DNA of 64,000 nt from an uncultured Gammaproteobacteria bacterium (GTDB lineage Bacteria; Patescibacteriota; Microgenomatia; UBA1406; HO2-37-13b). Below the pieces are notes generated by a model that worked only from the letters and a program-made list of their open reading frames with translations, searched no databases and was not told where the DNA came from. A program made the translations under genes and the position numbers. This document shows, one piece after another, positions 2,154 to 48,277 of the stretch; the first letter of the stretch is position 1; every line of letters begins with the position of its first letter. The stretch spans positions 72,389 to 136,388 of the forward strand of contig CAYPSA010000001.1 in assembly GCA_964413645.1 (NCBI GenBank). Direction: 5' to 3'.

Positions 2154-2200
2154 GTCAACCTCTTAGGTTGACAGTGCGGCGGCAACCTCTTAGGTTGACA
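2154..2200. repeat. Twin 15-nt palindrome repeat (family B), copy 1
   Basis: gtCAACCTCTTAGGTTGaCAGTGCggcggCAACCTCTTAGGTTGaca; palindromes at 2156-2170 and 2183-2197 (27-bp phasing). Confidence 0.9.
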
Positions 2201-3131
2201 TTTTTTTGGCAAATTCTAAAAACGCTCCTTGTCCAGTTTGTACATTCTCTTCTTTTCCTCTCCATGCTGCAAGCATTGGTTCTTCAAATACCCTTTCGAA
2301 TGAAAAGGTAACGGGGAATTCCAAACGTCCTGCTAAAGAGTGAATCGCAGCCAAATTTTCATTTGCCTGCTGCCCACTTTGCCCTCCCGATAAAAATACC
2401 ACACCTCCGATTGTTTTTGGAACTATTTCTTGTAATAAATCTACGGTAGCTCTCCCTATCTCTTCAGGAGAGCTGGAAGTGTGACTCGAGCCGGGCATAA
2501 TCATATTCGTTTTCAAAATAATTTTCCCTACATCAATCCCCTGTTCTTCCAACTTTTCAAATAGGGAAGTGAACACTTTTTTTGTTGCCTGTGCACAATC
2601 CTCCATCGAATGACTTCCTTCCATTAACACTTCCGGTTCAACAATAGGCACAATATCGTGGCTAAGAGAGATTCGAGCGTATTCTACTAATAATCGCACG
2701 TTTTCATCAATCGCCTCATCACTCGGGGTGTCCGCAGAGATAGGAAACGCTGCTCGCCATTTTACAAAACTCGTCCCCATGCTCTTATGTGCAGCTAATC
2801 GGGAATCCAACGTATCAATTCCCTTTGTTGTAAACTCGCCATTAGTTTCAAAAGGCAATAAGCCTTCATCAACTTTCACACCAATTTCTATACCGGCTGT
2901 AGAGAGTAGAGAAGCCAATGCAATTCCTTCTTCATTTAGAATAACACCGCTAATATATTCACGAGCCCCCGGAGCGCTGTAAAATATTCTCCTAAACTCG
3001 TTTCTATTCTCTTCACTAGCCTCAATTCCATACTTCTCAAATCGCTTTGTTAACGTTGCCACACTTGCATCATTAGCAAAAATGCCTTTCTTATGAGTAA
3101 AAAGTTTACGTAGTGTTTCCTTGCAATCCAT
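2190..3131 (-). CDS. fba: Fructose-bisphosphate aldolase, class I (Schiff-base type)
   Basis: 313 aa; KGIFANDAS..TLTKRF, ILKTNMIMPG, VFLSGGQS motifs; last codons and stop lie in the twin-palindrome repeat. Confidence 0.85.
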   Translation of the reverse strand: MDCKETLRKLFTHKKGIFANDASVATLTKRFEKYGIEASEENRNEFRRIFYSAPGAREYISGVILNEEGIALASLLSTAGIEIGVKVDEGLLPFETNGEFTTKGIDTLDSRLAAHKSMGTSFVKWRAAFPISADTPSDEAIDENVRLLVEYARISLSHDIVPIVEPEVLMEGSHSMEDCAQATKKVFTSLFEKLEEQGIDVGKIILKTNMIMPGSSHTSSSPEEIGRATVDLLQEIVPKTIGGVVFLSGGQSGQQANENLAAIHSLAGRLEFPVTFSFERVFEEPMLAAWRGKEENVQTGQGAFLEFAKKMST

Positions 3132-3227: not shown

Positions 3228-5135
3228 ATGCATGAAAATATGGGCTCTGTTTATGCTATTCCAACAGGTAAATCAGACCAAAATCCTACAATACGTGGTG
3301 ATTATGATGGCGCCTTAGTAATGACTACAGGTAGTTATATTGATGGTAGTGTGCATAGGTGTCATGATCCCCTCGACATCGCCTTAACAACTGCATTTAC
3401 TTCTTTGAGAGACTATCTCAATTTTCCAGTTCAACCAACCAAAGAGATTGCTGTGTTCGGAAAAGAAGTTAGAAATCGTCCAAGAAAACCAATAGCCATA
3501 CTTCGATCTTCGGGTGAAGCTACATTAAATTCTCGCAGCTTTTATAGAAATGCCGATCCAATTTCCTTCGCGCCAGAAAGTCCTATAAAATTTGGAAGTG
3601 GCATACGACTTGAAGCTATCGTTGATTCGTTGGCTCCACAAGTTGCGGCACTAGAAATGACAGATATGCAGCGAGAACTTCTTCCAGGACACGCAATTAT
3701 TTTTGCTGAACAGACTCGTTTAAGTCCAAGTTCTCATCAGATTAAACAAGTCCGTCGTGTAAGTGCTGATGGATTATCTGTTCGAACACAAAAATATATA
3801 GCAGAGCACGAAATAAGCGATGATGAACTTAACGGACTTGCAGCTAGCCTGCTTCATGACGGCGCGATTTCATTAATCATTAATGGATCAAGTCAAAGAT
3901 ATAATCTTGACAATGTGTATTCGCTCATTAAAGGAAGTTCGAAAAAGAAGCGAGACTCGTTCCCGCAGCTTCATTTCTTTCATGCTCTTTACACCAAGTT
4001 TCTTGATATTGTCGCGGCACGTGTTACGCAGGAACCCACATCAGCGCAAGACATTATTCTTCGTTTGCATGAACAACCTGAACTTGGAATAGAAATTCCG
4101 CGCGAACCATATGATGCGCTTGCTCAAGAAACGTTGGTGGATCATCTCGGGACAACCTTACCTATCGAGGTAATGGCTCGTAAGTTAAAGAATGTTCCGC
4201 CTGCTATTATCGCAATGTCACCCACACTTCAATTATATGAAGTCCTTGTTGCTTCAGCCGGATACACACTTTTTTCACATGAAGAATCTCCCATAGCTGT
4301 TCAGGGTCATGAAGGTGAATTGGCAGGGGATTATATCGCAACAGCTTCAGCTTGGCCTGATTTAGTTGTAGGAGCAGTTAATAAAAGTAGCGAAACGTGG
4401 AGCACGATGATGACATTGGAGCGCGAGTTTTTATTACGAAGAAATCCGCATGTTCAAGACTCACAGGTTGCCGATCATTTAGAGAAAAGGCTAAAAAAAC
4501 TTTTTAGTGGTCATTTGTTAAATTTCCGAGCGATGAAGAATATTGACGCGCACGTATTGCATGCGTTTTTGTCGGGCCTTGCTACTGAAACGCCTGAATC
4601 ACAATTAATTTTATATGAGCGAAAAGCAAAATTGATGGTCGATGAGCAGAATAGTGCTCTTGCTCCTTTTGAGCTTTTTGATGAAAAAACGTCTGGAATA
4701 ATTCCATCAGTAGAGAGAAAATTTAAAGATGGCGCTTCAATTGATATAAAAAATAATGTTCAGCCAGGTATCCGAGACAGTGTTTTTGCAGTAACTCAAA
4801 TTATTCAGCTTTATCATAATTTACGCCAACTTTCATCGTTGAGTACTCAACCGCATCCACGACTTAACTGGAGAAAAGCAATAGCATTGCGTGGTTCAAT
4901 TATTCATATTCCTCTTTTTGAGCAGGCGTCAAAAAATGCTTTTAGGTATGTCCCAGGGAATAAATACGGTATTGAAATGGTCGATTACGCTTCAGGTATT
5001 ACAGATCATGACTTAAGACATGTGAGAGCGCTAGTGGGACAGACAATTGCAGAAAGAACTCAAACACAAGTAAAAGCAATAAGAAAATCTGCTCGTGTGC
5101 GAAGAAATGCGACACCATTGCGAAAAGTAGCATAA
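3228..5135 (+). CDS. Hypothetical protein, 635 aa, no motif recognised, basic C-terminal tail
   Basis: Long uninterrupted ORF with its own extended -10 box (3209-3217); no TM or signal peptide, no P-loop or metal motifs seen. Confidence 0.6.
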   Translation: MHENMGSVYAIPTGKSDQNPTIRGDYDGALVMTTGSYIDGSVHRCHDPLDIALTTAFTSLRDYLNFPVQPTKEIAVFGKEVRNRPRKPIAILRSSGEATLNSRSFYRNADPISFAPESPIKFGSGIRLEAIVDSLAPQVAALEMTDMQRELLPGHAIIFAEQTRLSPSSHQIKQVRRVSADGLSVRTQKYIAEHEISDDELNGLAASLLHDGAISLIINGSSQRYNLDNVYSLIKGSSKKKRDSFPQLHFFHALYTKFLDIVAARVTQEPTSAQDIILRLHEQPELGIEIPREPYDALAQETLVDHLGTTLPIEVMARKLKNVPPAIIAMSPTLQLYEVLVASAGYTLFSHEESPIAVQGHEGELAGDYIATASAWPDLVVGAVNKSSETWSTMMTLEREFLLRRNPHVQDSQVADHLEKRLKKLFSGHLLNFRAMKNIDAHVLHAFLSGLATETPESQLILYERKAKLMVDEQNSALAPFELFDEKTSGIIPSVERKFKDGASIDIKNNVQPGIRDSVFAVTQIIQLYHNLRQLSSLSTQPHPRLNWRKAIALRGSIIHIPLFEQASKNAFRYVPGNKYGIEMVDYASGITDHDLRHVRALVGQTIAERTQTQVKAIRKSARVRRNATPLRKVA

Positions 5136-5152
5136 GGATCTTCGTGAGCTGG

Positions 5153-5902: not shown

Positions 5903-6000
5903 GTCATCCTGAGAGAGCACTGTCATTCTGAGCGCAGCGAAGAATCTAGGTGTGAATAGATCGGAGATTCTTCATCCCACTTTGCGGGATTCAGAATGAC
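5903..6000. repeat. Family A hairpin repeats: truncated 5' arm, one plus-strand unit and one inverted unit
   Basis: gtcatcctgagagagca / gtcATTCTGAgcgcagcGAAGAATctaggtgtg / inverted agattcttcatcccactttgcgggattcagaatgac. Confidence 0.9.
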
Positions 6001-7436: not shown

Positions 7437-8033
7437 ATGAAATTCACATACATCACTGAAGGAGAAAAAGGCAAATACTCTGTTACCCAACCAGGGGAGT
7501 CGATTTTTTTTATTTATAATTATTCTGGAGCAGTTGAAATTTCTATTAAATCTCCGAATGCGAAAGTTTACATTTACGGCGTGTATATTGGTAAAAAGAA
7601 CGACAATTTTACCCTTAATACTATTCAACATCACAAAGTTGGCGAGAGTGTTTCGGATTTACTTATTAAGGGAATTTTTTTCGATGAATCTAAATTTCAT
7701 TATGAAGGGTTAATTCGAATCGACAAAAAAGCACAAAAGTCGAATGCGTATCAAAAAAATCAGAACTTAGTAATGTCGAAAGAAGTCTTTGTCGATTCTC
7801 GACCTTACTTGGAGATTTTGGCAAATGATGTTCGGTGCACTCACGGTTCCACAACAGGACAGTTGGACAAAGAGCAATTGTATTTTGCAAAAACTCGGGG
7901 ATTATCAGAAAAGGAGGCTCAAAAAATGCTTCTTGAAGGATTCATTGGCGACATATTCAATAAAATGGAAGAAGTAGGGTTAGAAAAGTCCGTCATCCTG
8001 AGCGTAGCGAAGGATCTAGGTGTGGAGAATTGA
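7437..8033 (+). CDS. sufD: SufD-like Fe-S assembly protein (short, 198 aa)
   Basis: SufB/SufD-family core (VRCTHGSTTGQLDKEQLYFAKTRG); follows sufB by 2 nt; last 13 codons (VILSVAKDLGVEN) are repeat-derived. Confidence 0.8.
   Translation: MKFTYITEGEKGKYSVTQPGESIFFIYNYSGAVEISIKSPNAKVYIYGVYIGKKNDNFTLNTIQHHKVGESVSDLLIKGIFFDESKFHYEGLIRIDKKAQKSNAYQKNQNLVMSKEVFVDSRPYLEILANDVRCTHGSTTGQLDKEQLYFAKTRGLSEKEAQKMLLEGFIGDIFNKMEEVGLEKSVILSVAKDLGVEN
7992..8025 (+). repeat. Family A unit inside the sufD 3' end
   Basis: gtcATCCTGAgcgtagcGAAGGATctaggtgtgg; translated VILSVAKDLGV. Confidence 0.9.
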
Positions 8034-8034
8034 T

Positions 8035-9243
8035 ATGTTCAATACACAACAAACAAAAAAGGATTTCCCAATTTTCACTAAAAACCCTGATCTGGTCTAT
8101 TTAGATTCTACTGCAACTTCACTTAAACCCCGAGTGGTTCTTGATAAACTGAATGAGTACTACACGCAATACTCTTCCAATATTCATCGTGGAATTTACG
8201 ACATTGCCGAAAAAGCCACGGCAGAATATGAATTGGCCCGGCAAAAAGTTGCAGGTTTTATTCACGCTTCACCAGAAGAAGTGATTTTTACATCCGGAAC
8301 TACTGATTCCATCAATCTTCTTGCGTCGAGTTTGGGAGAGGAAGTCGGGGCCGGTGATGAAATTTGTGTAACGATTGCTGATCATCATTCAAATTTTGTT
8401 CCGTGGCAACAACTGGCGCTTAAAAAAGGAGCAACGTTTAAAGCTCTGCCTGTCGAAGACGTCATTCTGAGCGTAGCGAAGAATCTAGGTGTTAGGACCA
8501 AAATTCTGGCCCTTCCCCTCATTTCCAACACCCTCGGTACCATTTTCCCAATTAAAGAAATTGCTCTTCAAGCTCGAAAAATAAATCCTGACATATGTGT
8601 AATTGTAGACGCTGCGCAAAGCGTTCCTCATAGAGCAATCAACGTTCAGAGTCTGGGAGCTGACTTTGTTGCTTTTTCAGGGCATAAAATGGTAGGTCCA
8701 ACAGGTATTGGAGTATTGTGGGGTCGACGGGATATTTTGGATCGTATGCCACCCTATAAATTCGGTGGGGAAATGATCGAATCTGTTTCGGTAGAAAAAA
8801 CAACTTTTAACTCGCTTCCTCATAAGTTTGAAGCAGGGACTCCACCGATAGCTCAGGCCATAGGACTCGGGGCAGCGGTCGACTATTTGCAGAGTGTAGG
8901 GATGGAGAAAATTGAGAAACATGAAAAAGCTCTCACTTCATTTGCTCGACAGGAGCTGGAGAGAGAGTTTGGCGAGAAAATTACCATCTACGGTCCAAGT
9001 GCAGGCGAAGACAGAGGGGGATTGCTTTCATTTACATTCGGAAATTATCATGCACATGATGTTGCTCAAATTCTTTCTGAGGATAATGTCGCTGTTCGAG
9101 CGGGTAACCATTGTACTATGCCATTACATACGGCTCTTGGTGTTGTAGCAACAGTCCGTGCAAGTTTTTATATGTATAATGACGAATCCGACGTTAAAAA
9201 ACTTGTTACCAGTTTACATAAAGTTACCAACCTCTTAGGTTGA
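8035..9243 (+). CDS. sufS: Cysteine desulfurase SufS (class V aminotransferase)
   Basis: FSGHKMVGPTGIG (PLP Lys), RAGNHCTMPLH (catalytic Cys); ATG 8035 preferred to GTG 8020 (after sufD stop, GGAG 7 nt upstream); repeat unit in frame at 8461-8493. Confidence 0.93.
   Translation: MFNTQQTKKDFPIFTKNPDLVYLDSTATSLKPRVVLDKLNEYYTQYSSNIHRGIYDIAEKATAEYELARQKVAGFIHASPEEVIFTSGTTDSINLLASSLGEEVGAGDEICVTIADHHSNFVPWQQLALKKGATFKALPVEDVILSVAKNLGVRTKILALPLISNTLGTIFPIKEIALQARKINPDICVIVDAAQSVPHRAINVQSLGADFVAFSGHKMVGPTGIGVLWGRRDILDRMPPYKFGGEMIESVSVEKTTFNSLPHKFEAGTPPIAQAIGLGAAVDYLQSVGMEKIEKHEKALTSFARQELEREFGEKITIYGPSAGEDRGGLLSFTFGNYHAHDVAQILSEDNVAVRAGNHCTMPLHTALGVVATVRASFYMYNDESDVKKLVTSLHKVTNLLG
8461..8493 (+). 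repeat. Family A unit in frame inside sufS
   Basis: gtcATTCTGAgcgtagcGAAGAATctaggtgtt; translated VILSVAKNLGV. Confidence 0.9.
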
Positions 9244-9271
9244 CAGTGCCTGTTCAACCTCTTAGGTTGCC
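9227..9271. repeat. Twin 15-nt palindrome repeat (family B), copy 2
   Basis: Palindromes CAACCTCTTAGGTTG at 9228-9242 and 9255-9269 with CAGTGC linker; the first supplies the sufS C-terminus NLLG and TGA. Confidence 0.9.
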
Positions 9272-9330
9272 ACCTTTGTCATTCTGAGCGGTACCTTTGT
9301 CATTCTGAGCGGAGCGAAGAATCTCCGTAT
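9272..9330 (+). repeat. Family A: 21-bp tandem duplication of the left end followed by a complete unit
   Basis: acctttgtcattctgagcggt / acctttgtcATTCTGAgcggagcGAAGAATctccgtat. Confidence 0.9.
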
Positions 9331-9340
9331 AACAAAAAAT

Positions 9341-9700
9341 ATGTCATCAATTTACCAAGAAATCATTCTCGATCACTACAAATCCCCGCATAATTACGGT
9401 GATCTTCCCGACGCTTCGTGTGCAATTCACATCGATAACCCTAGTTGTGGTGATAAAATTCACTTAAGCGGCACCATAAAAAACGGCACGCTTACCGATG
9501 TTGCATTTACTGGACAAGGCTGTGCAATTTCAATCGCCTCTTCATCTTTGCTCACCGATTACATAAAAGGTAAAAAAGTTTCCGATTTGAAAAAACTTGA
9601 TACATCAATTATCTTAGAGTTGTTGGGAATCGAACTTTCTCCAAATCGTCTTAAATGTGCGCTGCTTCCCCTTGAAGCACTCTCAAAATTGATCAAGTAG
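9341..9700 (+). CDS. sufU: SufU/IscU-type Fe-S scaffold or sulfur acceptor
   Basis: 119 aa; NPSCGD, GQGCAIS, LKCALLP conserved Cys ligands. Confidence 0.85.
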   Translation: MSSIYQEIILDHYKSPHNYGDLPDASCAIHIDNPSCGDKIHLSGTIKNGTLTDVAFTGQGCAISIASSSLLTDYIKGKKVSDLKKLDTSIILELLGIELSPNRLKCALLPLEALSKLIK

Positions 9701-9803: not shown

Positions 9804-11570
9804 ATGTCTCATTTTCTGTGGAAAATTGGGGGTCAGGCAGGGTTTGGTGTCATGACGACTGGATTGTCATTTTCCAAAATTGCCACAAAAGTTGGCTACC
9901 ATATTTTCGATTGTTTTGAATATCCTTCGCTCATTCGAGGCGGGCATAATACGTATGATGTCATTCTCTCGCCGGAACCTGTGCACGCAATACAGCACGA
10001 CATTAATGTTCTTGTTTGTTTGAATAAAGAAACTTTTGAGCTCCACAAACACCGTCTCACTAAGGATTCAATTGTCATTTACGACGAGAATAGCTTCACG
10101 CCTTCCGAGAGTGGCTATAAGATAATTCATCTTCCTTTTAAAACAATGCTATTTGAAAATAAGGCATCTATGGTTATGGAAAATAATATTGCACTTGGAT
10201 GCTCTTTAGCAGTCCTAGACTGGCCGTATCAGATCCTCGATGATATGATCGAGCAAACATTCGCCGATAAAGGAGCTTCGGTTGTTTCTTTAAATAAAAA
10301 AATCTCTAAACTCGCATATGATTACGTCATAAAAAATCACGGCGATTTCATTATCCACGACTTTCCTGTTCTTAAAAAAACTGAACCAAAAATTGTCCTT
10401 ACTGGAAATGACGCATTTGCATATGGCGCTATTGCTGCCGATTGTCGACTATACGCTGCCTACCCCATGACTCCTTCCTCAACCGTTCTTACCACGCTTG
10501 CAGCGCATGCTCAAAAAACGGGCATGGTTGTGCGTCATGCTGAAGATGAAATATCAGTTATTAATACTGCGCTAGGAGCGAGTACTGCCGGTGTTCGCGC
10601 GGCTTGTGGAACATCGGGCGGAGGATTTGCGCTTATGGTTGAATCAATTTCATTTGCAGGAATTGCAGAAATCCCACTGGTTATTTTTATGAGTCAGCGT
10701 CCGGGACCAGCTACCGGACTGCCCAGTTGGACAGAACAAGGGGATTTGCTGTTTACCGTTCATGCAGGGCACGGGGAATTTCCAAAAATTGTACTAGCTC
10801 CCGGGGACCCATACGAAATGTACGCATTAACATTAAAAGCATTTGATTTAGCCGACTATTATCAAACGCCAGTTATTGTGCTGTCAGATAAACATCTTTC
10901 AGAAAGTAATATGAGTATTAATCACCTCGACCTTAAGCTCCTTAACAGAGCATATTCGCCTGATTCTGGAAAGCTCATTTGGAAAGCTAATCACTATCAA
11001 CGCTATGCCGATGTTCCCGATGGAATTTCCCCCCGCCTGGTTCCTGGATACCCCGGACAGTTTTATCAAGTGAATTCGTATGAGCATACAGCAGATAGCC
11101 ATACTACTGAAGATGCTCAAGAGAGAGTTATCCAAGTTAACAAGAGAAACAGAAAAACACAAACATATTTAGCAAAACATTTTGCTATGCCCGAAATTTT
11201 TGGTGATATAAATAAATCTGAAATTGTTTTTGTTTCATGGGGCAGTAATAAGGGGGCGATTTTGGAAGCACAGCGCATTTTAGCGGGCAAAGGAGAGAAA
11301 ACTGCGTTTATTCATTTCACCCACGTGTTTCCACTTGATGAGAGCAGGGTTGCCGCGCTCTTTATATTAAAGAAGAGATTCATTTTGATTGAAAATAATA
11401 GTCAGGGTCAGTTCGCCAAGCTCCTACGTGAGCAAACGGGTGTACATCTGAAAGAAAAAATTCTCAAGTACAACGGCCGCCAAATCCATGTTGAAGAAAT
11501 TGTTGATTACATTATTCCGGACTCCTCTGTCACTCTGAGCAGAGCGAAGAGTCTAGGTGTTAAACCATGA
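9804..11570 (+). CDS. 2-oxoacid:ferredoxin oxidoreductase, alpha (gamma-alpha fused) subunit
   Basis: 588 aa; GGQAGFGVMT N-terminus, YPMTPSS motif; 4-nt overlap with beta subunit gene; C-terminal 13 aa repeat-derived. Confidence 0.85.
   Translation: MSHFLWKIGGQAGFGVMTTGLSFSKIATKVGYHIFDCFEYPSLIRGGHNTYDVILSPEPVHAIQHDINVLVCLNKETFELHKHRLTKDSIVIYDENSFTPSESGYKIIHLPFKTMLFENKASMVMENNIALGCSLAVLDWPYQILDDMIEQTFADKGASVVSLNKKISKLAYDYVIKNHGDFIIHDFPVLKKTEPKIVLTGNDAFAYGAIAADCRLYAAYPMTPSSTVLTTLAAHAQKTGMVVRHAEDEISVINTALGASTAGVRAACGTSGGGFALMVESISFAGIAEIPLVIFMSQRPGPATGLPSWTEQGDLLFTVHAGHGEFPKIVLAPGDPYEMYALTLKAFDLADYYQTPVIVLSDKHLSESNMSINHLDLKLLNRAYSPDSGKLIWKANHYQRYADVPDGISPRLVPGYPGQFYQVNSYEHTADSHTTEDAQERVIQVNKRNRKTQTYLAKHFAMPEIFGDINKSEIVFVSWGSNKGAILEAQRILAGKGEKTAFIHFTHVFPLDESRVAALFILKKRFILIENNSQGQFAKLLREQTGVHLKEKILKYNGRQIHVEEIVDYIIPDSSVTLSRAKSLGVKP
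11529..11561 (+). repeat. Family A unit inside the 3' end of the oxidoreductase alpha gene
   Basis: gtcACTCTGAgcagagcGAAGAGTctaggtgtt; translated VTLSRAKSLGV. Confidence 0.9.
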
Positions 11571-12466: not shown

Positions 12467-14896
12467 ATGAAAATTCCTGGTATTTCTGGCGAAAAAATGT
12501 ACCCCATTGTGCCTGTTCGTGATGGAATTGTGTTTCCGGGTGCCGAACAAGTTCTCCTGTTTGGACGATCAAAAAGTATCCTTGCAATCGATGAAGCGTT
12601 AAAGCGTGATAAGAAAATTATCTTGTTAATGCAAAAGAACCCCGATGTTAACGATCCGAAACCAGAAGATCTGCATCAAATCGGTGTTTTGGCTACTATT
12701 GAAAAAATGCTCAAAGGCGAACGTGGTGAAGTCAGTGCATTGGTTCGTGGAGAAACGCGAATTAAAGTTGAAACGTTTCATGTACACGGCGACTTGTTCG
12801 AGGCTGAGCTCAAATACTTACCTGAAGCAATTCTTGAACCCGCAACGACCAGTCAAGTTGAGGCACTCGTTAAACACATTACCAGTGAACTTAAAAAAGC
12901 TGTTAATTTAGGAAAAGGTATTGAGTTCGTCTTCTTAATGAACATCATGAGTGGCGTATCGCCGCAAGAATTTTCAAATCATGTAGCGATGATTTTAGAT
13001 ATCAAGACTCCGGCTCGACAAAGACTCCTTGAAGAAGAAGACTTGTTAGTAAGACTTCAAAAAGAAGCAGAACTTATTACGAATGAAGTTAAAGTATTAG
13101 AAATTGAACATAGTATTTCCGTAAAAACCCAAAAGAAATTTGAAAAGGGAATGAAGGATGCAGTGCTTCGCGAGAAACTCAAGACAATCGAACAAGAACT
13201 TGGTGATGAAACTCCAGAAAACCGCGATATAAATGAGCTTCGAGCGAAACTCAAAAAAGCAAAAATGAACAAAGATGCCGAAGAAAAGGCATTCAAAGAG
13301 CTTGAACGACTTGCGCAAATGTCCCCATTTAACCCAGAGGCTTCATATATCCGTACCTATCTAGAGGTTATTGCCGATCTTCCATGGAGCGAAGCATCAA
13401 AAGGTGACGTTGATATTAAGAAAGCTGAAAAAGTACTTAATGCCGATCACTATGGTTTGAAAAAAGTAAAAGAACGTATCTTGGAATATCTCGCGGTCAT
13501 GAAGTTGAAAGAAATGTCTGAAAAATCCAAAGATTCAGCTGCAAAACAGCCTACGATTTTATGTTTTGTTGGACCTCCCGGCGTAGGTAAAACCTCTCTT
13601 GGACGTTCAATTGCCAAAGCGTTAGGTCGCAAATTTGTAAAAATGTCACTTGGAGGAATTCGTGATGAAGCAGAAATTCGTGGTCATCGCCGAACATATG
13701 TTGGTGCCATGCCCGGACGCATGATTCAGGGAATTCGACAAGCAAAAGTAAATAATCCAGTATTCATGCTCGATGAAATCGACAAAATCGGTGGTGATTA
13801 TCGTGGCGATCCATCTGCCGCTCTTTTAGAAGCACTTGATCCTGAACAAAATTTTGCATTTTCCGATCATTACCTAGAAGTTCCATTCGACCTTTCCGAT
13901 GTAATGTTTATTACTACTGCAAATATGCTTGATACCATTCCAGGACCGCTTCGCGATCGATTGGAAATCATTAATTTCTCAGGATATACTGCTGATGAAA
14001 AGTTCCATATTGCAAAAAATTACTTAACTAAAAAACAAACAGAAGCTCATGGACTTATCGATCATAAAGTTTCCATTGTTGATACCGCGCTTAAATCTAT
14101 TGCAAACGACTATACCCGCGAAGCCGGGGTTCGTGAACTTGAACGTCAAATTGCTACTATTATGCGAAAAGTAGCTCGCGACGTTCTTGAAAAAGGCAAA
14201 AAAACATATTCAATTAAACCCGCAGATCTTCATGGTTATTTGGGTCCTAAAAAATATTCTTCACAAGTTATTGAAGAAAAGGATGCGATTGGAATTGTTA
14301 ATGGTCTTGCGTGGACTCCCGTTGGGGGAGAGATCTTATTGATTGAAATCGCAATCATGCCAGGCAAAGGAAACTTGATTCTTACCGGTCACTTAGGTGA
14401 TGTTATGAAAGAATCTGCCCAAGCCGCATTAAGTTATATTCGTTCACGATTTGAAGTATTTGGTCTAAATGGTGATTTTTATAATTCTATCGATATTCAT
14501 ATTCACGTTCCCGAAGGAGCTGTTCCAAAAGATGGACCTTCGGCTGGTGTTGCAATTACAACCGCTATGATTTCAGCGCTTACAAAACTTCCGGTAAATC
14601 GTCAGGTTGCTATGACGGGCGAAATTACACTACGTGGACGAGTTCTGGAAATTGGAGGAGTAAAAGAGAAGGTTATTGCAGCTCATCGAGCGGGAATTAA
14701 AACGGTCTTGCTTCCTGCTGATAATAAAAAGGATCTTGAAGATTTACCAACGTTCGTAAAAGATGATGTAGCGTTTATATTTGTTTCTCATCTTGATGAT
14801 GCGCTTAAAAAAGCCCTCATTTTCCCCGGTGGTAAATTTAATTTTAGAAAACTTGAAAAAGTAGCAGTTTCAGCAGAAACTCCCGTTCTTAATTAA
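12467..14896 (+). CDS. lon: ATP-dependent Lon protease
   Basis: 809 aa; GPPGVGKTSLGRSIA Walker A, KDGPSAGVAITTAM catalytic Ser. Confidence 0.95.
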   Translation: MKIPGISGEKMYPIVPVRDGIVFPGAEQVLLFGRSKSILAIDEALKRDKKIILLMQKNPDVNDPKPEDLHQIGVLATIEKMLKGERGEVSALVRGETRIKVETFHVHGDLFEAELKYLPEAILEPATTSQVEALVKHITSELKKAVNLGKGIEFVFLMNIMSGVSPQEFSNHVAMILDIKTPARQRLLEEEDLLVRLQKEAELITNEVKVLEIEHSISVKTQKKFEKGMKDAVLREKLKTIEQELGDETPENRDINELRAKLKKAKMNKDAEEKAFKELERLAQMSPFNPEASYIRTYLEVIADLPWSEASKGDVDIKKAEKVLNADHYGLKKVKERILEYLAVMKLKEMSEKSKDSAAKQPTILCFVGPPGVGKTSLGRSIAKALGRKFVKMSLGGIRDEAEIRGHRRTYVGAMPGRMIQGIRQAKVNNPVFMLDEIDKIGGDYRGDPSAALLEALDPEQNFAFSDHYLEVPFDLSDVMFITTANMLDTIPGPLRDRLEIINFSGYTADEKFHIAKNYLTKKQTEAHGLIDHKVSIVDTALKSIANDYTREAGVRELERQIATIMRKVARDVLEKGKKTYSIKPADLHGYLGPKKYSSQVIEEKDAIGIVNGLAWTPVGGEILLIEIAIMPGKGNLILTGHLGDVMKESAQAALSYIRSRFEVFGLNGDFYNSIDIHIHVPEGAVPKDGPSAGVAITTAMISALTKLPVNRQVAMTGEITLRGRVLEIGGVKEKVIAAHRAGIKTVLLPADNKKDLEDLPTFVKDDVAFIFVSHLDDALKKALIFPGGKFNFRKLEKVAVSAETPVLN

Positions 14897-14899
14897 TTA

Positions 14900-14941
14900 G
14901 CCTAAGAGGTTGGATGTGCCTAGCCAAGCCCGCAGGTTGTC
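14900..14941 (+). repeat. Half family-B palindrome and 27-nt family-C motif
   Basis: gcctaagaggttgg and tgtgcctagccaagcccgcaggttgtc; the latter matches 48251-48277 at 23 of 27 positions. Confidence 0.7.
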
Positions 14942-15805: not shown

Positions 15806-16010
15806 CCCTGAGCTTGTCGAAGGGTCATCCTGAGCGACCCAGAGCATACGCGAGGGGAGTCGAAGGATCCCCGCTATCTGTCATTCTGAGCGCTTTGCCT
15901 GCCGCAGGTAGGTAGCGAAGAATCCCAATTGTGTCGTCGTACTTACGGCGCGAGATATCTGATCCGCCAGCTGGCGGAGAGACCATTTGACCTGCCTGCC
16001 GGCAGGCAGG
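15804..16010 (+). repeat. Repeat hotspot: three family A units with free-standing inner palindromes
   Basis: Units at 15804-15826, 15824-15870 and 15880-15925; hairpin gaTCCGCCagctGGCGGAgaga at 15961-15982; palindrome CCTGCCTGCCGGCAGGCAGG at 15991-16010. Confidence 0.9.
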
Positions 16011-16076
16011 GACTGCTACGCGGGCTCACTATGGTTGAGAATCACGATATCGAGCGGAGTATAAATCTTGAGGAGC

Positions 16077-20661: not shown

Positions 20662-21939
20662 ATGCTTTCTATTGATTTTATCCGCGCCAACAAACAGAAA
20701 GTCGAACTTTGTTCGAAGAATAAAAACCGCCCGGTTGATGTAGATGCATTACTAGCTCTTGATGACACCCGCCGAGAACTTATTGGGAAAGTTCAAAAAC
20801 TCCGTGAAGAAAGAAATTCCCTTGCAAGTGCAGGGTCCGACGAGAGCGCACGGGAGCGCGGTCGAGTAATTAAGGATGAACTTAAGGTATTTGAAACAAA
20901 GCTTACCGATGTCGAAACAAAACTTAATGACCTCCTCTTAACCGTTCCAAATATATACCTTGATGAGGTTCCGGTAGGTACCGACGAATCGGGAAACCAA
21001 GAAATTTCAAAATGGGGAACTATTCCAGAATTTGACTTTACTCCCCTGTCGCATATTGAACTAGGAGAGAAGTTGGATCTAATTGATCTTAAACGAGGAA
21101 CGAAAGTATCGGGTTTTCGTGGCTATTTTCTAAAAAACCAAGCTGCTCAATTGCAAATGGCGCTCACGTTGTATGTTCTGAACAAACTCGTTAACAAAGG
21201 ATATACCCCGCTTCTTGCCCCCGCAGTTGTAAAAAGCTTTACAATGTTTGGAAATGGACAATTTCCGTGGGGAAAAGATGAAGTGTATGCGTTAAATGAT
21301 GACGATGCGTATTTGGCTGGTACTGCAGAAGTTCCAGTAACTGCGTATTTTGCTAATGAAACATTTTCGGAAAGTGACTTGCCCAAGAAGTTCGTCGCAT
21401 TTTCATCGTGCTTTCGCAGGGAAGCTGGCTCATATGGAAAAGATACAAAAGGCTTATACCGAGTTCATGAATTTTTCAAAATTGAACAGGTCATTATTGC
21501 AAAAGCGGATATAGAAGAAGCTAAAAAAATGCATGAAGAACTCCAACGAAATTGTGAAGAAATTCTACAAGAATTAAACCTCCCTTACCATATTTTACTT
21601 ATGTGCACCGGCGACATGGGAGAACCTCAAATGAAAAAGTATGATACTGAAGTCTGGATGCCATCTCGAAACGGGTACGGTGAAACAATGTCAAATTCCA
21701 TAATGGGCGATTTCCAAACACGACGTCTCAATATTAAATATAAAGATGCCCAAGGCAATATGCATTTCACCTATTCTCTAAACAATACTGCAATTGCATT
21801 TCCACGAATTCTGATTCCATTATTAGAAAATAACCAACAAAAAGACGGTTCAATTAAAGTTCCAGAAGTCCTTGTAAAATATACCGGCTTTGAAGTTATA
21901 TCTCCCCGTCATGCTGAGCGAAGCGAAGCATCTCAGTAA
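20662..21939 (+). CDS. serS: Seryl-tRNA synthetase
   Basis: Coiled-coil N-terminus, CFRREAGSYGKDTKGLYRVHEFFKIEQ motif 2; start moved from 20644 to ATG 20662; C-terminal RHAERSEASQ is repeat-derived. Confidence 0.93.
   Translation: MLSIDFIRANKQKVELCSKNKNRPVDVDALLALDDTRRELIGKVQKLREERNSLASAGSDESARERGRVIKDELKVFETKLTDVETKLNDLLLTVPNIYLDEVPVGTDESGNQEISKWGTIPEFDFTPLSHIELGEKLDLIDLKRGTKVSGFRGYFLKNQAAQLQMALTLYVLNKLVNKGYTPLLAPAVVKSFTMFGNGQFPWGKDEVYALNDDDAYLAGTAEVPVTAYFANETFSESDLPKKFVAFSSCFRREAGSYGKDTKGLYRVHEFFKIEQVIIAKADIEEAKKMHEELQRNCEEILQELNLPYHILLMCTGDMGEPQMKKYDTEVWMPSRNGYGETMSNSIMGDFQTRRLNIKYKDAQGNMHFTYSLNNTAIAFPRILIPLLENNQQKDGSIKVPEVLVKYTGFEVISPRHAERSEASQ
21908..21935 (+). repeat. Family A unit forming the serS 3' end
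   Basis: gtcATGCTGAgcgaagcGAAGCATctc; read in the alternative open frame as RHAERSEASQ-stop. Confidence 0.85.
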
Positions 21940-31544: not shown

Positions 31545-31594
31545 GTCATTCTGAGTGAAGTCGAGGAGTCATTCTGAGCGGAGCGAAGAATCTC
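31545..31594 (+). repeat. Two tandem family A units upstream of tsaC-tsaE
   Basis: gtcattctgagtgaagtcgaggagtc (degenerate, G.T pairs) and gtcATTCTGAgcggagcGAAGAATctc. Confidence 0.85.
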
Positions 31595-31602
31595 AATTAC
31601 TT

Positions 31603-32668: not shown

Positions 32669-32741
32669 GTCATTCTGAACGAAGTGAAGAATCTGGGTGC
32701 TAGGTTCTAGTATCGAGATCCTTCGTTTCACTCAGGATGAC
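32669..32741. repeat. Family A full-size element (two inverted units) between tsaC-tsaE and tsaD
   Basis: gtcATTCTGAacgaagtGAAGAATctgggtgc...gatccttcgtttcactcaggatgac. Confidence 0.9.
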
Positions 32742-33771: not shown

Positions 33772-33846
33772 ACCCTGAGCGCAGTCGAAGGGTCATCCTG
33801 AGGGAGAGATCCGCCCGCTGGTGGAGACCGAAGGATCTAGGTGTTA
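33771..33846 (+). repeat. Two tandem family A units downstream of tsaD
   Basis: gACCCTGAgcgcagtcGAAGGGTc and gtcATCCTGAgggagagatccgcccgctggtggagaccGAAGGATctaggtgtt; same pairing of unit types as at 15804-15870. Confidence 0.9.
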
Positions 33847-33854
33847 CGAATCAT

Positions 33855-34499
33855 TTACTTCGCTGCAAGTTCCGCATCAATCAATTTACTAAACGCGTCG
33901 AGCGAGCCTGGATTGCTTAATTTAACTCCATTCAAAAAGAAGGTTGGAGTTGAATTTACTCCTAAGGCGACACCACTCAGTCTATCTGCCTCAATTTTCT
34001 TATCATGCATATCGGTATTATCTTTTTTGAATTGCTCCATGTTCAATTTCAATTTTGAAGCATATGATTCAAACTTCTTTTGCGGATCCTTCTCTTTTTC
34101 CCATTCTTTTTGATTGGTAAAAAGCAAGTCTCCCATTTCAAAGAATTTTCCTTGTTTGCCAGCGGCTTCTGCTGCTCGAGCTGCTACGATTGCATTTTCA
34201 TGTTGCTGTAATGGAAAGTGACGCATAACAAGTCCAATTTGATCTTTGTATTTTTCAAGCACTTGTTTTATAAGTGGATGATATTGTCCGCAGGCGGGGC
34301 ATTGATAATCGCTGTATTCAACAAGCATGACTTTCGCCTTCTTATTTCCAGCGATATAGTCATTTTCACGAACTGGAATATCTTGCTTTACAACTGTCTG
34401 AGGTTTGGAGGTCATATACCAAGCTCCAAATAAAATTCCGAGTGTTAATAAGCTTCCCGCAACGACGAGAGCGATTTTTTTAGGGGTAATATCTTCCAT
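33855..34499 (-). CDS. Membrane-anchored DsbA-like thiol:disulfide oxidoreductase
   Basis: N-terminal TM helix and CPAC thioredoxin motif; TGaTATAAT box 8 nt upstream of ATG. Confidence 0.75.
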   Translation of the reverse strand: MEDITPKKIALVVAGSLLTLGILFGAWYMTSKPQTVVKQDIPVRENDYIAGNKKAKVMLVEYSDYQCPACGQYHPLIKQVLEKYKDQIGLVMRHFPLQQHENAIVAARAAEAAGKQGKFFEMGDLLFTNQKEWEKEKDPQKKFESYASKLKLNMEQFKKDNTDMHDKKIEADRLSGVALGVNSTPTFFLNGVKLSNPGSLDAFSKLIDAELAAK

Positions 34500-34641: not shown

Positions 34642-35223
34642 CTAACGTTCAGGAATAACTCTTCTTCTTATTAGCAACAGCATTACAAATCCCCAGTTGG
34701 AAAATATAAGTGTTGCCGGATAAACGGTGGTTGTAATTGAGTATGTATTGAGGGCAAGGATTGCAAAAACAAATTTTAGACCACTAAGTGCATAGCTGAT
34801 AAGCGTTTCCTGATAGGGTTTGGAGTATGATTTTCGTATAGTTGGAATAAGAGCTAACACATCTGAAATACTAATTAAAATAGCTGACCAAACGGGAGTT
34901 TTTGTTAAATACCATAACAAAAGAGCCAGAAGTGCGCCAGTGAGTGCAATCCAATCTGCCAAAACGATTTCCCTCGTACCTTTTTTAATAGAAAGTAAAA
35001 AAATTCCCAAGCACGCAATCGAAGTAAATCCGGTAACCCATGCACCAGCTCCTGCGCCTCCTACTATTTGACCAAAGAAGCCAATCGCTGTCATTAAAAA
35101 CCATACAAACCATGAAAACATGTGGGGCTTTGTTTTTCCTGCGAAGATGTCTCTGTAATAGGGTACGTACCCAATGAAAGCAATAAGCGTTGCAATACTT
35201 CCGAGTATAATTTGGGAATTCAT
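34642..35223 (-). CDS. Hypothetical 7-TM membrane protein with internal 3-TM duplication (PQ-loop/SWEET-like topology, tentative)
   Basis: 193 aa; seven hydrophobic segments (3+1+3); repeated VPYYRDIFAGKTKP / IPTIRKSYSKP motif after TM1 and TM5. Confidence 0.55.
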   Translation of the reverse strand: MNSQIILGSIATLIAFIGYVPYYRDIFAGKTKPHMFSWFVWFLMTAIGFFGQIVGGAGAGAWVTGFTSIACLGIFLLSIKKGTREIVLADWIALTGALLALLLWYLTKTPVWSAILISISDVLALIPTIRKSYSKPYQETLISYALSGLKFVFAILALNTYSITTTVYPATLIFSNWGFVMLLLIRRRVIPER

Positions 35224-35231
35224 GTAGTTTG

Positions 35232-35240
35232 TCTATATCA
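35232..35240 (-). promoter_or_regulatory. Extended -10 box for the 7-TM protein gene
   Basis: Minus strand TGaTATAGA, 8 nt before ATG 35223. Confidence 0.5.
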
Positions 35241-35263
35241 AAAAGTCATAGCTTTTCCAAATG

Positions 35264-35334
35264 TCGGGGTGGGGAGAGTCGAACTCCCGCCTCACGGTCC
35301 CAAACCGCGAATTCTACCGCTATACTACACCCCG
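35264..35334 (-). tRNA. tRNA-Pro (anticodon UGG)
   Basis: Reverse complement CGGGGTG-TA-GTAT-AGCGGTA-GAAT-T-CGCGG-TTTGGGA-CCGTG-AGGC-GGGAG-TTCGACT-CTCCC-CACCCCG-A; good acceptor, anticodon and T arms, weak D stem; CCA not encoded. Confidence 0.8.
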
Positions 35335-35377
35335 TATGTTTCAATTATACTTGATCTTTTCCCATATTTCCTGGTAT

Positions 35378-35388
35378 TGTTATACAAT
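35378..35388 (+). promoter_or_regulatory. Extended -10 region for the sugar transferase operon
   Basis: TGtTATACAAT; 6-8 nt before ATG 35395. Confidence 0.55.
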
Positions 35389-35394
35389 AGGCAT

Positions 35395-36054
35395 ATGAAT
35401 ATATTCTCTGGGGAAACGTATAAGAACACGCTAAAGCGATTTGTTGACGTGATAGGAGCACTCGTGCTGATCGTATTTTTTTCCCCGGTATGCCTGCTAG
35501 CCGCAATTTTAATTAAATTAGGTTCAAAAGGACCTATTCTGGCTGATGTTCCACAACGAGTAGGGTTAAACGGGAAACTTTTCACCATGCATAAATTTCG
35601 TTCCATGATCCTTAATGCGCATAACATGTTGCGTAATGATGTAGAGTTCAAACAGCTGTATGAAGAATATAAGCAAAGTAGTTTTAAGCTAAAAAAAGAT
35701 CCGCGAATTACTACGGTAGGAAAATTTTTACGTAAACATTCGATTGATGAAATTCCACAATTTATAAATGTATTGTCGGGCGATATGAGTTTGGTCGGTC
35801 CCCGTGCATATTATCAAGATGAGCTTGAAGATCAACAAGCAAAGTACCCACACACGCGACCGCTCGTTGCTAAAGTGCTTTCAGTTCGGCCGGGAATTAC
35901 AGGGTTATGGCAAGTCTCTGGTCGCTCCGAAATTAATTTCGATAAACGCATCGCTATTGACGCAGACTATGTCGATAATGTATCATTAATGACAGATTTA
36001 AAGATTATGCTCAAAACCCCGCTTGAAATGATTCAGGGGAAAGGCGCCGTATGA
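35395..36054 (+). CDS. Priming phosphoglycosyl transferase (bacterial sugar transferase family)
   Basis: MHKFRSM, DEIPQFINVLSGDMSLVGPRA, RPGITGLWQVSGRS; ORF-track start 35122 runs through tRNA-Pro, so ATG 35395 used. Confidence 0.88.
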   Translation: MNIFSGETYKNTLKRFVDVIGALVLIVFFSPVCLLAAILIKLGSKGPILADVPQRVGLNGKLFTMHKFRSMILNAHNMLRNDVEFKQLYEEYKQSSFKLKKDPRITTVGKFLRKHSIDEIPQFINVLSGDMSLVGPRAYYQDELEDQQAKYPHTRPLVAKVLSVRPGITGLWQVSGRSEINFDKRIAIDADYVDNVSLMTDLKIMLKTPLEMIQGKGAV

Positions 36055-40660: not shown

Positions 40661-40758
40661 GTCATTCTGAGCGCCCTGCCTGCCGGCAGGCAGGTAGCGA
40701 AGAATCTCGGTGTGATTAACACCCAGATTCTTCAGTCGCTTTGCTCCTTAAGAGTGAC
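40661..40758. repeat. Family A full-size element with a 20-nt palindrome plugged into the core
   Basis: gtcATTCTGAgcgcCCTGCCTGCCGGCAGGCAGGtagcGAAGAATctcggtgtg...agattcttcagtcgctttgctccttaagagtgac. Confidence 0.9.
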
Positions 40759-43360: not shown

Positions 43361-43406
43361 GTCAACCTCTTAGGTTGCCAGTGCGTAGTCAACCTCTTAG
43401 GTTGCC
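43361..43406. repeat. Twin 15-nt palindrome repeat (family B), copy 3
   Basis: Palindromes CAACCTCTTAGGTTG at 43363-43377 and 43390-43404, CAGTGC linker, 27-bp phasing. Confidence 0.9.
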
Positions 43407-44489
43407 CACTTCCTTTAAAACGTTCAAGGTCTCATCCGCACATTTTTTCCAGCTGAATTCCTTGACTCTCTGTAATCCTTTGGCCTTCAAGGAAGCACGT
43501 AACTCATTGTTTGAGAGTACTTCATCAATTTTCTTTGCCATATCAATTGTATCATTTGGATCAAAATATACACAAGCATCACCGCAAACTTCAGGCAGGC
43601 TTGAATTGTTAGAAACAATTGCGGGGCAACCCGCACTCATTGCTTCCAGAGGAGGATTACCGAAGCCTTCGTACAGCGAAGGGAGAACATATGCTTGGGC
43701 ATGCTTGTACAGCGCGTTTTTTTCACCGTCAGTAACATATCCAGTAAACACTACGTCATCTTGGAGATTTAACTGCGTAACTCGCACATAAATTTCATCA
43801 TACAACCAGCCTTTTTTCCCAACTAGATAAAGCTTTAGGTCCGCATGTTCCTTTTTAAGGCTACTAAAGGCTTCTATGAGTTTTACCACATTTTTTCGAG
43901 GTTGCAGAGTTCCTACGTATAACAGGTATGGAGAGGTTGGCAACTTAACCTCTTCAGGAGTTTCAACTGAGCTTGTTATGTTAAACCCATTATGAATAAC
44001 TTCAATTTTTTGCTCAGGAGTTTCATAGAATTTAATAATATCCTTTTTCGTGTTTTCAGATACCGCAATAACTTTTGAAGAGCGATTTAGAGCATAACTC
44101 GTCCAGTTTTTAAGCTTATACAAATCTTTTTTTAAAAACTCTTCGGGATAATAAAAATAAGCCACGTCATGGATAGTTACAACCGTCTTAACAGAGCTAA
44201 ATCGAGGTATATAATGCGCAGGGCAAAACAAAACATCGGGTTTTTTATGCGTTGCTAAATATGCCGGAAAAAACACCTGACTCCAGGCAACTGAACCGGG
44301 AATTACTATGTATTTAAAATATTCATTTTGACTAGGAAGGTCAGAAAGAGGGGATTTTCGTAGGTAAATTACAAATTGTATTTTCTCACCCGCGCTCTTA
44401 TAAAACTCTCTTAGCAAATTTAGAGTATACAACGATACTCCCACTCGCTCGTTTACATTTGCTTCATTTCCATCTATTCCAATAATCAT
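43389..44489 (-). CDS. Glycosyltransferase family 4
   Basis: EGFGNPPLEAMSAGCPAIVSN motif; C-terminal NLRG and stop encoded by the twin palindrome. Confidence 0.85.
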   Translation of the reverse strand: MIIGIDGNEANVNERVGVSLYTLNLLREFYKSAGEKIQFVIYLRKSPLSDLPSQNEYFKYIVIPGSVAWSQVFFPAYLATHKKPDVLFCPAHYIPRFSSVKTVVTIHDVAYFYYPEEFLKKDLYKLKNWTSYALNRSSKVIAVSENTKKDIIKFYETPEQKIEVIHNGFNITSSVETPEEVKLPTSPYLLYVGTLQPRKNVVKLIEAFSSLKKEHADLKLYLVGKKGWLYDEIYVRVTQLNLQDDVVFTGYVTDGEKNALYKHAQAYVLPSLYEGFGNPPLEAMSAGCPAIVSNNSSLPEVCGDACVYFDPNDTIDMAKKIDEVLSNNELRASLKAKGLQRVKEFSWKKCADETLNVLKEVGNLRG

Positions 44490-48220: not shown

Positions 48221-48277
48221 CAACCTCTTTGTCCGCCAACTGGCGGAGACTGTGCCTACTTAAGCCCGCTGGTTGTC
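48221..48277 (+). repeat. Composite: half family-B palindrome, CCGCC/GGCGG hairpin and family-C motif
   Basis: caacctcttt-gTCCGCCaactGGCGGAgac-tgtgcctacttaagcccgctggttgtc. Confidence 0.75.

Follow-up and report, generated by a model that had tools for sequence, protein, structure and literature searches.

The twin palindromes described here are probably the two-unit form of an interspersed, mosaic family of palindromic repeats that is lineage-restricted and resembles the REP, BIME and REPIN elements, in a CPR bacterium of the Microgenomates group. Across the roughly 77 kb of its genome that were covered (the window, i.e. the whole stretch of 64,000 nucleotides that was analysed, plus a 13 kb flank), the family occupies six gene junctions, named J1 to J6 below, and it also occurs in at least four related lineages, at the same and at other junctions. 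The elements would spread and be homogenised at the DNA level and survive at the extreme 3' ends of genes; any effect that they have on the mRNA would be secondary, and their SD-like GAGGU and stop codons appear to be incidental by-products with no translation switch.

Six exact copies of CAACCTCTTAGGTTG were found in the window (2156-2170, 2183-2197, 9228-9242, 9255-9269, 43363-43377 and 43390-43404), all six with the CTT loop on the plus strand, and they form three twins in which the start-to-start distance is 27 nt each time. When up to three mismatches were allowed, the number of matches rose to 14, compared with about 1.2 (1.22) expected and a maximum of 4 in 100 dinucleotide shuffles. 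The linker of a twin reads N-CAGTGC-N5, and N5 (ggcgg, ctgtt and gtagt) is wholly different among the three twins. The original prediction had described twin 15-nt palindromes with 27-bp phasing and a CAGTGC linker, overlapping the stop codon of the upstream gene, and we confirmed the arrangement in all three twins and the overlap for fba, sufS and GT4. Its count of three copies is right for exact twins but misses the diverged members J4 and J6 in the window and one more (J5) outside it. In the same way, the claim that the copies always lie on the plus strand and are always spaced by 27 bp describes the three twins and not the family, because J4 and J5 are reversed and one relative (L033) has spacings of 16 and 26 nt. 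In one frame, a palindrome with an AAG/CTT loop contains a TAA or TAG, and another frame has TGA if the next base is A; the idea that the repeat gives a TGA stop in either orientation is therefore not generally correct, since TGA needs an A after AGGTTG.

Table 1 Palindromic elements at the six junctions and the upstream genes of the three exact twins (P, palindrome; Q, half-unit; Q', Q of the reversed element)
Feature	Position	Strand or orientation	Structure and remarks
J1, fba-pgk	2156..2197	-	P(AAG) - ccgccGCACTGt - P(AAG), transcribed strand
fba, class I aldolase	2190-3131	-	C-terminus ...MST-TAA; TAA at 2192-2190 lies in the loop of the first P
J2, sufS-sufU	9228..9269	+	P(CTT) - aCAGTGCctgtt - P(CTT)
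sufS	8020-9243	+	C-terminus ...NLLG-TGA; TGA at 9241-9243 is the end of the first P plus A
J3, GT4-hexapeptide acetyltransferase	43363..43404	-	P(AAG) - actacGCACTGg - P(AAG)
GT4 glycosyltransferase	43389-44489	-	C-terminus ...NLRG-TGA; TGA at 43391-43389
J4, lon-DsbA-like	14898..14939	+	Diverged: P(TAGCCT-AAG-AGGTTG) - gatgtGCCTAGc - Q(caagCCCGCAGGTTG); nhmmer E = 5e-10
J5, sixth member	L001:13936-13977, just left of the window	Opposite orientation	Before a sortase gene
J6, Wzy-like-PMT_2	48221..48275	-	Degenerate, reversed: Q'(CAACCAGCGGG) - cttaaGTAGGCacagt - P remnant (CAAAGAGGTTG)

Further members were found by a mismatch-tolerant search and by a profile built from 13 units, and they showed a modular family. 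The first module is the palindrome P (CAACCT-N3-AGGTTG, 15 nt with a 6-bp stem), which is followed by a 12-nt linker with an invariant GC at its exact centre, the dyad centre, and then by a second module that is either another P or a half-unit, Q (nnnnCCCGSAGGTTG). When the elements were aligned on the transcribed strand, the invariant positions were both arms of the first P, the last AGGTTG and the central GC of the linker. The flanks of the linker GC fall into a few types (CAGT-GC or GC-ACTG; GT-GC-CTAR-C; ATAG-GC-ATGT), and both the linker and Q were found in both orientations relative to transcription. The loops in the window genome are AAG/CTT, while GGA, ACC, CCG and TCG loops were found in other lineages, and the phasing of units is usually 27 nt across the family.

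All six junctions lie between co-directional genes, and the upstream stop codon falls within the element or precedes it by no more than 5 nt, so the original tie to gene ends and operon junctions holds at every junction found. At J1, the ATG of pgk (2144) follows 11 nt past the element, with ACAAAGAAAAT as the tail, and at J3 the ATG of the hexapeptide acetyltransferase gene (43354) follows 8 nt past it, with ACAAAAAT as the tail. The J2 element is followed by repeats of another family, D1, up to the ATG of sufU at 9341, whose product is a NifU-type scaffold protein. The J4 element starts 1 nt past the lon stop codon TAA (14894-14896), and a promoter-like TTGACT-17-TAAAAT precedes the next ATG (15011). 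At J6 the nhmmer match is weak (E = 0.83). A 17-nt palindrome, CTCCGCCAGTTGGCGGA (48248-48232), is nested in this element and interrupts it, and the linker contains the wzy stop codon TAA (48262-48260). The source genome also holds other palindromic repeat families at gene ends, one of which (D1) is even found in frame inside sufS.

Judging from protein relatedness, the host is an uncultivated bacterium of the Microgenomates group of the CPR/Patescibacteria, and the named relatives of its PGK, SufS and GT4 proteins come solely from Microgenomates, Roizmanbacteria, Woesebacteria and Patescibacteria MAGs. Its genome is compact: many genes overlap by 4 nt, and empty gaps of 8 nt are frequent. The family is restricted to this CPR bacterium and a few close relatives. 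The full half-unit pattern gave no match in 185,579 species genomes (one genome per species) or in JGI metagenomes, and the relaxed core pattern gave 6 and 10 matches, which is about the number expected by chance, none of them with flanking palindromes. Viral contigs, plasmids and phages gave no match to the family pattern. The elements of the relatives were found solely via contigs that encode close homologues of the flanking proteins. An Rfam scan of the window and the related loci returned tRNAs only and no rRNA gene, and our literature search returned no paper connecting REP, RAYT, REPIN or MITE with Patescibacteria.

Alignment of orthologous junctions showed how the elements change at a given site, namely by gain or loss, steps of 27 nt, loop flips, linker swaps, interruption and trimming. 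At J1, the spacer is absent from two relatives at 74% PGK identity (L006 and L009), in which the stop codon overlaps the ATG, and unrelated palindromic repeats are found there in relatives at 90% and 81% PGK identity (L003 and L008). The twin of a relative at 92% PGK identity (L005/L026) is identical at 41/42 positions, with the single change in N5, and in L007 (88% PGK identity) the native fba end ...LCAVL* is followed by three GGA-loop units. The J2 element takes the form P-A-P followed by other repeats in the window, P-A-P-B-Q in L026 and P-B-Q in L030. At J3, L032 is identical to the window at 42/42 positions, L031 has three units with other loops and linkers and a clear 27-nt tandem duplication, and L033 has the native stop VASN*, then 13 nt, and then three units at spacings of 16 and 26 nt; across the lineages, the J3 elements have AAG, ACC, CCG or TCG loops and two or three units. 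The J4 elements of the window and L026 differ at 10/27 positions in P and linker, with the loop flipped, L026 having P(CTT) and the CAGTGC linker, and Q and the downstream spacer are nearly identical in the two. At J6, the reversed unit of L031 is intact, the 17-nt foreign palindrome nested in P is common to the window and L033, and L032 has no element and keeps the native C-terminus ...GRIDTARK*.

The relatives at J1 (L007) and J3 (L033) showed by alignment that the primary position of the element is just after the native stop codon, and that the embedded stops of the window at these two junctions arose later, when deletions (49 and 23 nt, respectively) joined the ORFs to P. SufS has likewise lost its native end at J2 (...VE[ST]IL* in other relatives, replaced by ...VTNLLG* in the window, P0121 and P0123), though no relative with the intermediate state was seen. 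Deletions of this kind are tolerated because a P with an AAG/CTT loop supplies a stop codon in one frame, and in a second one if A follows. Three other readings of the junctions were tried and rejected. A long target-site duplication at J1 (GCCAAAAAAATG versus ACAAAGAAAATATG) is out, because L007, L008 and L009 show the native fba end ...LCxxL* and the window has a deletion; lineage-specific loops evolving in concert are out, because L031 has AAG at J6 but ACC and CCG at J3; and a replication-polar motif, to which the three twins on the plus strand would conform, is out, because the reversed J4 element sits between two of them.

As RNA, the J1 twin was predicted to fold into one nested hairpin (-22.1 kcal/mol, z = -6.4), not into two small ones; this hairpin has two 6-bp stems, one outer and one inner, an internal loop (3x3), an apical loop of 12 nt and a total length of 42 nt. 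The z values for J2 and J3 were about -3.5, and the predicted folds thus support the stable hairpins that had been expected from the window alone. Folding prediction for single-stranded DNA gave both the nested and the two-hairpin conformations, and the two models fitted the aligned units equally well, with 89% of cells paired. The covariation test on 13 units found no compensatory change in any stem pair; therefore the sequence, not the structure alone, is conserved. The cores of the orthologous twins are identical at 125/126 positions between the window and L026/L032, compared with 71.6% at third codon positions (window versus the L026 lineage). The fixed arms and central GC, the free loops, the mixed orientation and the remodelling, as read from the alignments, point to recognition at the DNA level or copy-to-copy homogenisation and not to an RNA motif of one strand. 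The near-perfect conservation of the arms, the central GC and the orthologous cores may just as well be due to selection for a role in the cell.

For the preferred reading, that of a REP/BIME/REPIN-like repeat, we propose the following. The elements would be copied and homogenised as DNA, candidate mechanisms being DNA that is prone to form hairpins or cruciforms, slippage during replication, conversion between copies and a putative sequence-specific enzyme. In a compact genome, they would survive only where they are harmless, which is at the extreme 3' ends of genes. After transcription, a twin would form the single 42-nt nested hairpin, probably a 3' structural barrier or a decoupler of cistrons by analogy with REP hairpins, and we infer that such an effect on mRNA stability or coupling is not the reason for the existence of the element. 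No transposase, RAYT or recombinase was found among the 58 ORFs of the window (Y1_Tnp included) or in the gene tables of the related loci, and comparison of filled with empty sites at J1, J3 and J6 gave no target-site duplication. Mobility is suggested by presence or absence and by remodelling, no recent transposition event having been caught. At J4 and J5 the spacer is long, and the location of the element close to the stop codon may there be due to function instead of tolerance.

A more specific proposal, which we consider rather unlikely, is that the invariant arms and the central GC are the recognition code of a lineage-specific protein acting in trans. The family would then be a vertically inherited replicator like the REPIN-RAYT systems, of independent origin in an ultra-small CPR genome and possibly without an HUH transposase, and its copies would have been exapted as compact "cistron boundary" modules that combine a stop codon with a hairpin. 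The sole candidate for a recognition protein that we saw was an orphan ORF of 635 aa adjoining J1 (3228-5135), whose link to the element is weak. The orphan had no match in Pfam, NCBIfam, PHROG, PADLOC or PDB and gave only two 50% clusters among 1.84 billion proteins. Its AlphaFold model (pLDDT 45) was too poor for a structure search, and this lead to a co-varying protein was dropped.

It is unlikely that the family is a selected RNA element, i.e. a hairpin kept as a barrier to 3'-5' exonucleases for the upstream cistron or as a processing site (e.g. for RNase III), either of which would set the relative expression of neighbouring genes, although such a role would be compatible with a repeat origin through exaptation. 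The strong predicted hairpins (above all that of J1), the position directly past the stop codon of co-directional genes at six of six junctions, and the location of the J4 and J5 elements between the stop codon and the next promoter-like site, i.e. in the 3' UTR, are all as such a role would have it, and the cores are far more conserved than synonymous sites. Three stem transitions (two in U5 and one in L030) also keep G-U pairing on the transcribed strand, but three wobble-compatible transitions weigh little (p ~0.125). Against this role, the arms are invariant in sequence with no compensatory changes, neither the linker nor Q has a fixed orientation towards the mRNA, and housekeeping junctions of close relatives have no element or have unrelated repeats.

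The translational model of the original prediction was that of an intercistronic hairpin masking the SD. Extended to translational coupling, it would have the GAGGU of the last AGGTTG serve the downstream gene as its ribosome-binding site, which would open up once the outer stem is melted by a ribosome that terminates in the first palindrome. The nested fold does pair the first CAACCU, at the upstream stop codon, with the last AGGUUG, and the ATG follows 8-11 nt past the last AGGTTG at J1, J3, J2 (in L026 and L030) and J6 (in L031). In addition, GAGGTTGACAAAAATATG is invariant at J3 in four lineages despite their differing loops, and L026 carries GGAGGTTG before sufU. But SD 4-mers (-20..-4) were found at 9/58 window genes compared with 5.2 expected, two of the nine owing the 4-mer to the elements themselves, and GGAGG was found at none. 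The regions upstream of the genes are A-rich and G-poor, many starts look leaderless, and a TATAAT-like box precedes the ATG of several genes by 6-10 nt. At J2 (window), J4 and J5, 46-71 nt separate the end of the element from the next start codon, the CUU strand is presented at J2 and at J4 of L026, and L007 and L030 have GAAGGUUG and GCAGGUCG. The tails before the ATG look like native intercistronic spacer, because the J6 tail of L031 matches the empty site of L032, and native 8-nt gaps are common in this genome. With no SD enrichment in host genes, mixed orientation and the long distance at three junctions, the evidence goes against the SD/anti-SD reading, and we regard the model as very unlikely. 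A weak co-option of GAGGTTGACAAAAATATG at J3 may be conceived, because it is invariant there in the four lineages.

We consider it highly improbable that the palindromes are an array of operators, i.e. binding sites of a dimeric regulator or a nucleoid protein with the flanking genes as its regulon. The invariant half-sites CAACCT/AGGTTG and the central GC, together with variable palindrome centres and linker flanks, would make a pattern of protein contacts, orientation makes no difference to the conservation, and the suf operon contains one copy. Cyanobacterial SufR binds CAAC-N6-GTTG, but the spacing here is CAAC-N7-GTTG and the suf cluster of the window contains no regulator gene, so a SufR-type operator is out. 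The sites are at the 3' ends of genes and not at promoters, and the flanking genes are unrelated to each other (glycolysis, Fe-S assembly, Lon, sortase and polysaccharide synthesis). A distance of 27 bp corresponds to 2.6 helical turns, which would put the two sites on opposite faces, and both the number of units and the presence of the element vary among close relatives. The paired operator that had been offered as a candidate role is thus disfavoured.

Chance similarity or an assembly or chimera artefact can practically be dismissed, as 14 matches stand against 1.2 expected, identical elements were found in two independent SRA assemblies (the second from sample L002) and orthologous copies in ENA and Logan assemblies of related lineages, and we found no point in favour of it. 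Because the elements recur in the independent sample L002 and in related lineages, they are not an assembly artefact.

Several other roles were tried and rejected. An intrinsic terminator is out, because the terminator matches in the elements (2183-2197 on the plus strand and 9245-9225 on the minus strand) are antisense to the genes and J3 has none, and a promoter role (TTGACA-17-TAGGTT on the plus strand) is out, because the motif is not conserved across copies or orientations; terminator and promoter scans gave counts not above those of shuffles. TIGR arrays (TIGR-Tas), which are known from CPR, consist of 36-nt units in tandem, with two variable spacers of 8-10 nt and box C/D-like motifs, beside a Tas (Nop-domain) gene. 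Such an array is out, because the units here are 27 nt long, vary at no more than 6-10 positions and number two or three, and there are no RUGAUGA/CUGA motifs and no Nop-domain gene. Bacterial SECIS or recoding is out as well, because fba and lon end in TAA, a ribosome reading through the TGA of J3 would run into another in-frame TGA after 27 nt, and no selA or selB was seen in the window.

Few known genomes are as small and streamlined as those of CPR/Patescibacteria, which are usually called repeat-poor. In the genome studied here, several families of short palindromic repeats occupy the junctions, and also coding sequence, of housekeeping operons, and the twin family could be followed across close relatives through insertion, 27-nt expansion, loop inversion, nested insertion and ORF fusion. 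This makes it a tractable case of selfish or semi-domesticated repeats that coexist with extreme genome reduction and rewrite protein C-termini and stop codons. For the annotation of MAGs there is a practical side, in that such repeats lead to spurious tails at C-termini and to miscalled starts. Should there be a cognate recognition protein, systems of the REPIN-RAYT type would extend beyond the Proteobacteria, where they were defined.

The closest comparison is with the REP and BIME of enterobacteria such as E. coli, in which palindromic units and conserved linker motifs form mosaic clusters (PMC2817692, PMC3333891). As in these families, a short palindromic unit is repeated at dispersed sites, with few linker types, regular spacing, mosaic clusters and a variable number of units; the elements lie just past stop codons, inside operons or at their end, and form hairpins once transcribed; and the family is specific to a narrow lineage. 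However, the unit here is 15 nt with a 6-bp stem, and the GT(A/G)G head is not conserved, GTAG being found at two loci only (the 5 nt before P are ggcgg, ctgtt, gtagt, gtaga, aatag, etc.). The loops of adjacent P modules are direct and not alternating in all P-P pairs (AAG/AAG three times, GGA/GGA and CCG/CCG). REP and BIME have RAYT (TnpA-REP) transposases, none of which was seen in the 58 window ORFs or the related loci, and they usually number more than 100 copies per genome, whereas six loci in about 77 kb are a density and not a census. REP and BIME are also extragenic; the present elements lie past the native stop codon in L007, L033, J4 and J5 but, after deletions, overlap the last codons or the stop codon at J1-J3 and J6 of the window. 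In addition, the host is a CPR bacterium, in which elements are fused to ORF ends and supply the stop codon. Because the GT(A/G)G head and alternating orientation were not found, and no RAYT was seen, we describe the twin family as BIME-like and do not file it as a RAYT-dependent REP.

The REPINs of Pseudomonas are similar in that two palindromic units and a short spacer fold into one long hairpin, and in that doublets persist at orthologous sites over long periods, with conserved units and a variable spacer. In a REPIN, however, the doublet is inverted and relies on a RAYT present as a single copy, whereas the twin is a 27-nt tandem of a self-complementary unit with a 3x3 internal loop.

Correia/NEMIS elements of Neisseria and ERIC/IRU lie near gene ends and are co-transcribed, their processable hairpins alter mRNA stability, and they can supply expression signals by accident. 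The twins share with them the form of small MITE-like repeats near gene ends that are transcribed into hairpins, but those elements are 100-150 bp long with terminal inverted repeats and target-site duplications (TA for Correia), whereas the twins are 42 nt with no duplication. Measured against MITEs in general, which combine terminal inverted repeats with a target-site duplication, the elements have inverted ends (CAACCT...AGGTTG) but no duplicated flank at J1, J3 and J6. The palindromic elements of Rickettsia (RPE) differ in being about 100-150 bp long and in frame inside ORFs, whereas the twin family terminates ORFs and gives no read-through. With RPE, the twins share that palindromic repeats are tolerated in or at the ends of coding genes of a reduced genome and add or replace a few residues, here the tails ...MST, ...TNLLG and ...NLRG, and the neighbouring D1 family, with its in-frame insertion in sufS, resembles RPE in its own right.

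The CAACCT family, in which the palindrome CAACCT-N3-AGGTTG is followed by a 12-nt linker and a second palindrome or half-unit at gene ends, is not the commonest repeat of the window. A second palindromic family, with the consensus GTCAT[TC]CTGAGCG-N-AGCGAAG[AG]ATCT..., is commoner, and it occupies many of the gene junctions and makes up the 3' ends of several ORFs. A third small palindrome, TCCGCCAG(C)TGGCGGA, is also present in the window, and one of its copies is nested within the CAACCT-family element at the junction of the wzy-like and PMT_2 genes, where the same copy was found in the related lineage L033 and not in L031. Relatives without the CAACCT family carry different, lineage-specific palindromic repeats at the identical junctions, such as GAGATCTC.../CGAGATGAC and GTCATCCCGAA...TTCGGGAT in L008 and L003, so the gene junctions of this clade appear to act as sinks for small palindromic repeats in general.

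Coordinates of repeats, genes and ORFs (window positions unless a contig is named)
Feature	Location	Strand	Remark
Second-family repeats	5922-5953, 7992-8023, 8461-8492, 9299-9330, 11529-11560, 21908-21939, 31568-31599, 32669-32700, 40682-40713
Third-family palindrome	48232-48248		also inside 15806-16076 and 33772-33854
Lineage-specific repeats of relatives	L008:350-466; L003:4886-4970, 9940-10000
Genes with upstream TATAAT-like box	3228, 12467, 15011, 33855-34499 (-), 51254, 53131, 53545
Orphan 635-aa ORF	3228-5135	+	adjoins fba/pgk junction
Three-gene block	L026:3503-7128 / L005		TrpR-like; PEP-utilising enzyme (PPDK_N/PEP-utilizers domains); histidine phosphatase

Where genes abut repeats or a tRNA, the mechanical ORF starts are probably wrong. 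For sufS the start was called at a GTG at 8020, but its homologues begin MFNTQQ, which corresponds to an ATG near 8035; for the PMT_2 gene it was called at a TTG at 48239, and the true start is probably the ATG near 48212. ORF 35122-36054 overlaps, in its 5' part, a tRNA encoded on the opposite strand (35264-35334). Several genes have TATAAT-like boxes 6-10 nt 5' of the ATG, the sequence 5' of genes is rich in A and poor in G, and no SD enrichment was found upstream of the window genes, which together suggests that initiation in this organism is mostly leaderless or SD-independent.

The closest relative (L026/L005) has the three-gene block between the 635-aa ORF and sufC, and the window lacks it at 5136-5143, so the lineages differ here by an indel of some 3.6 kb. 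For the 635-aa protein itself, searches of Pfam, NCBIfam, PHROGs, PADLOC and PDB gave no hit, and only two 50% clusters among 1.84 billion representative proteins matched it; its AlphaFold model was unusable (pLDDT 45). It shares only 62% identity with its L026 orthologue, against 92% for PGK of the same pair. The ORF is missing at this locus in L003, L006 and L009, the same lineages in which the CAACCT family was not found.

Within sufS, the second-family copy at 8461-8492 is internal and in frame, where it encodes the peptide VILSVAKNLGV, and relatives have quite different peptides at this position. In this it resembles the Rickettsia palindromic elements.
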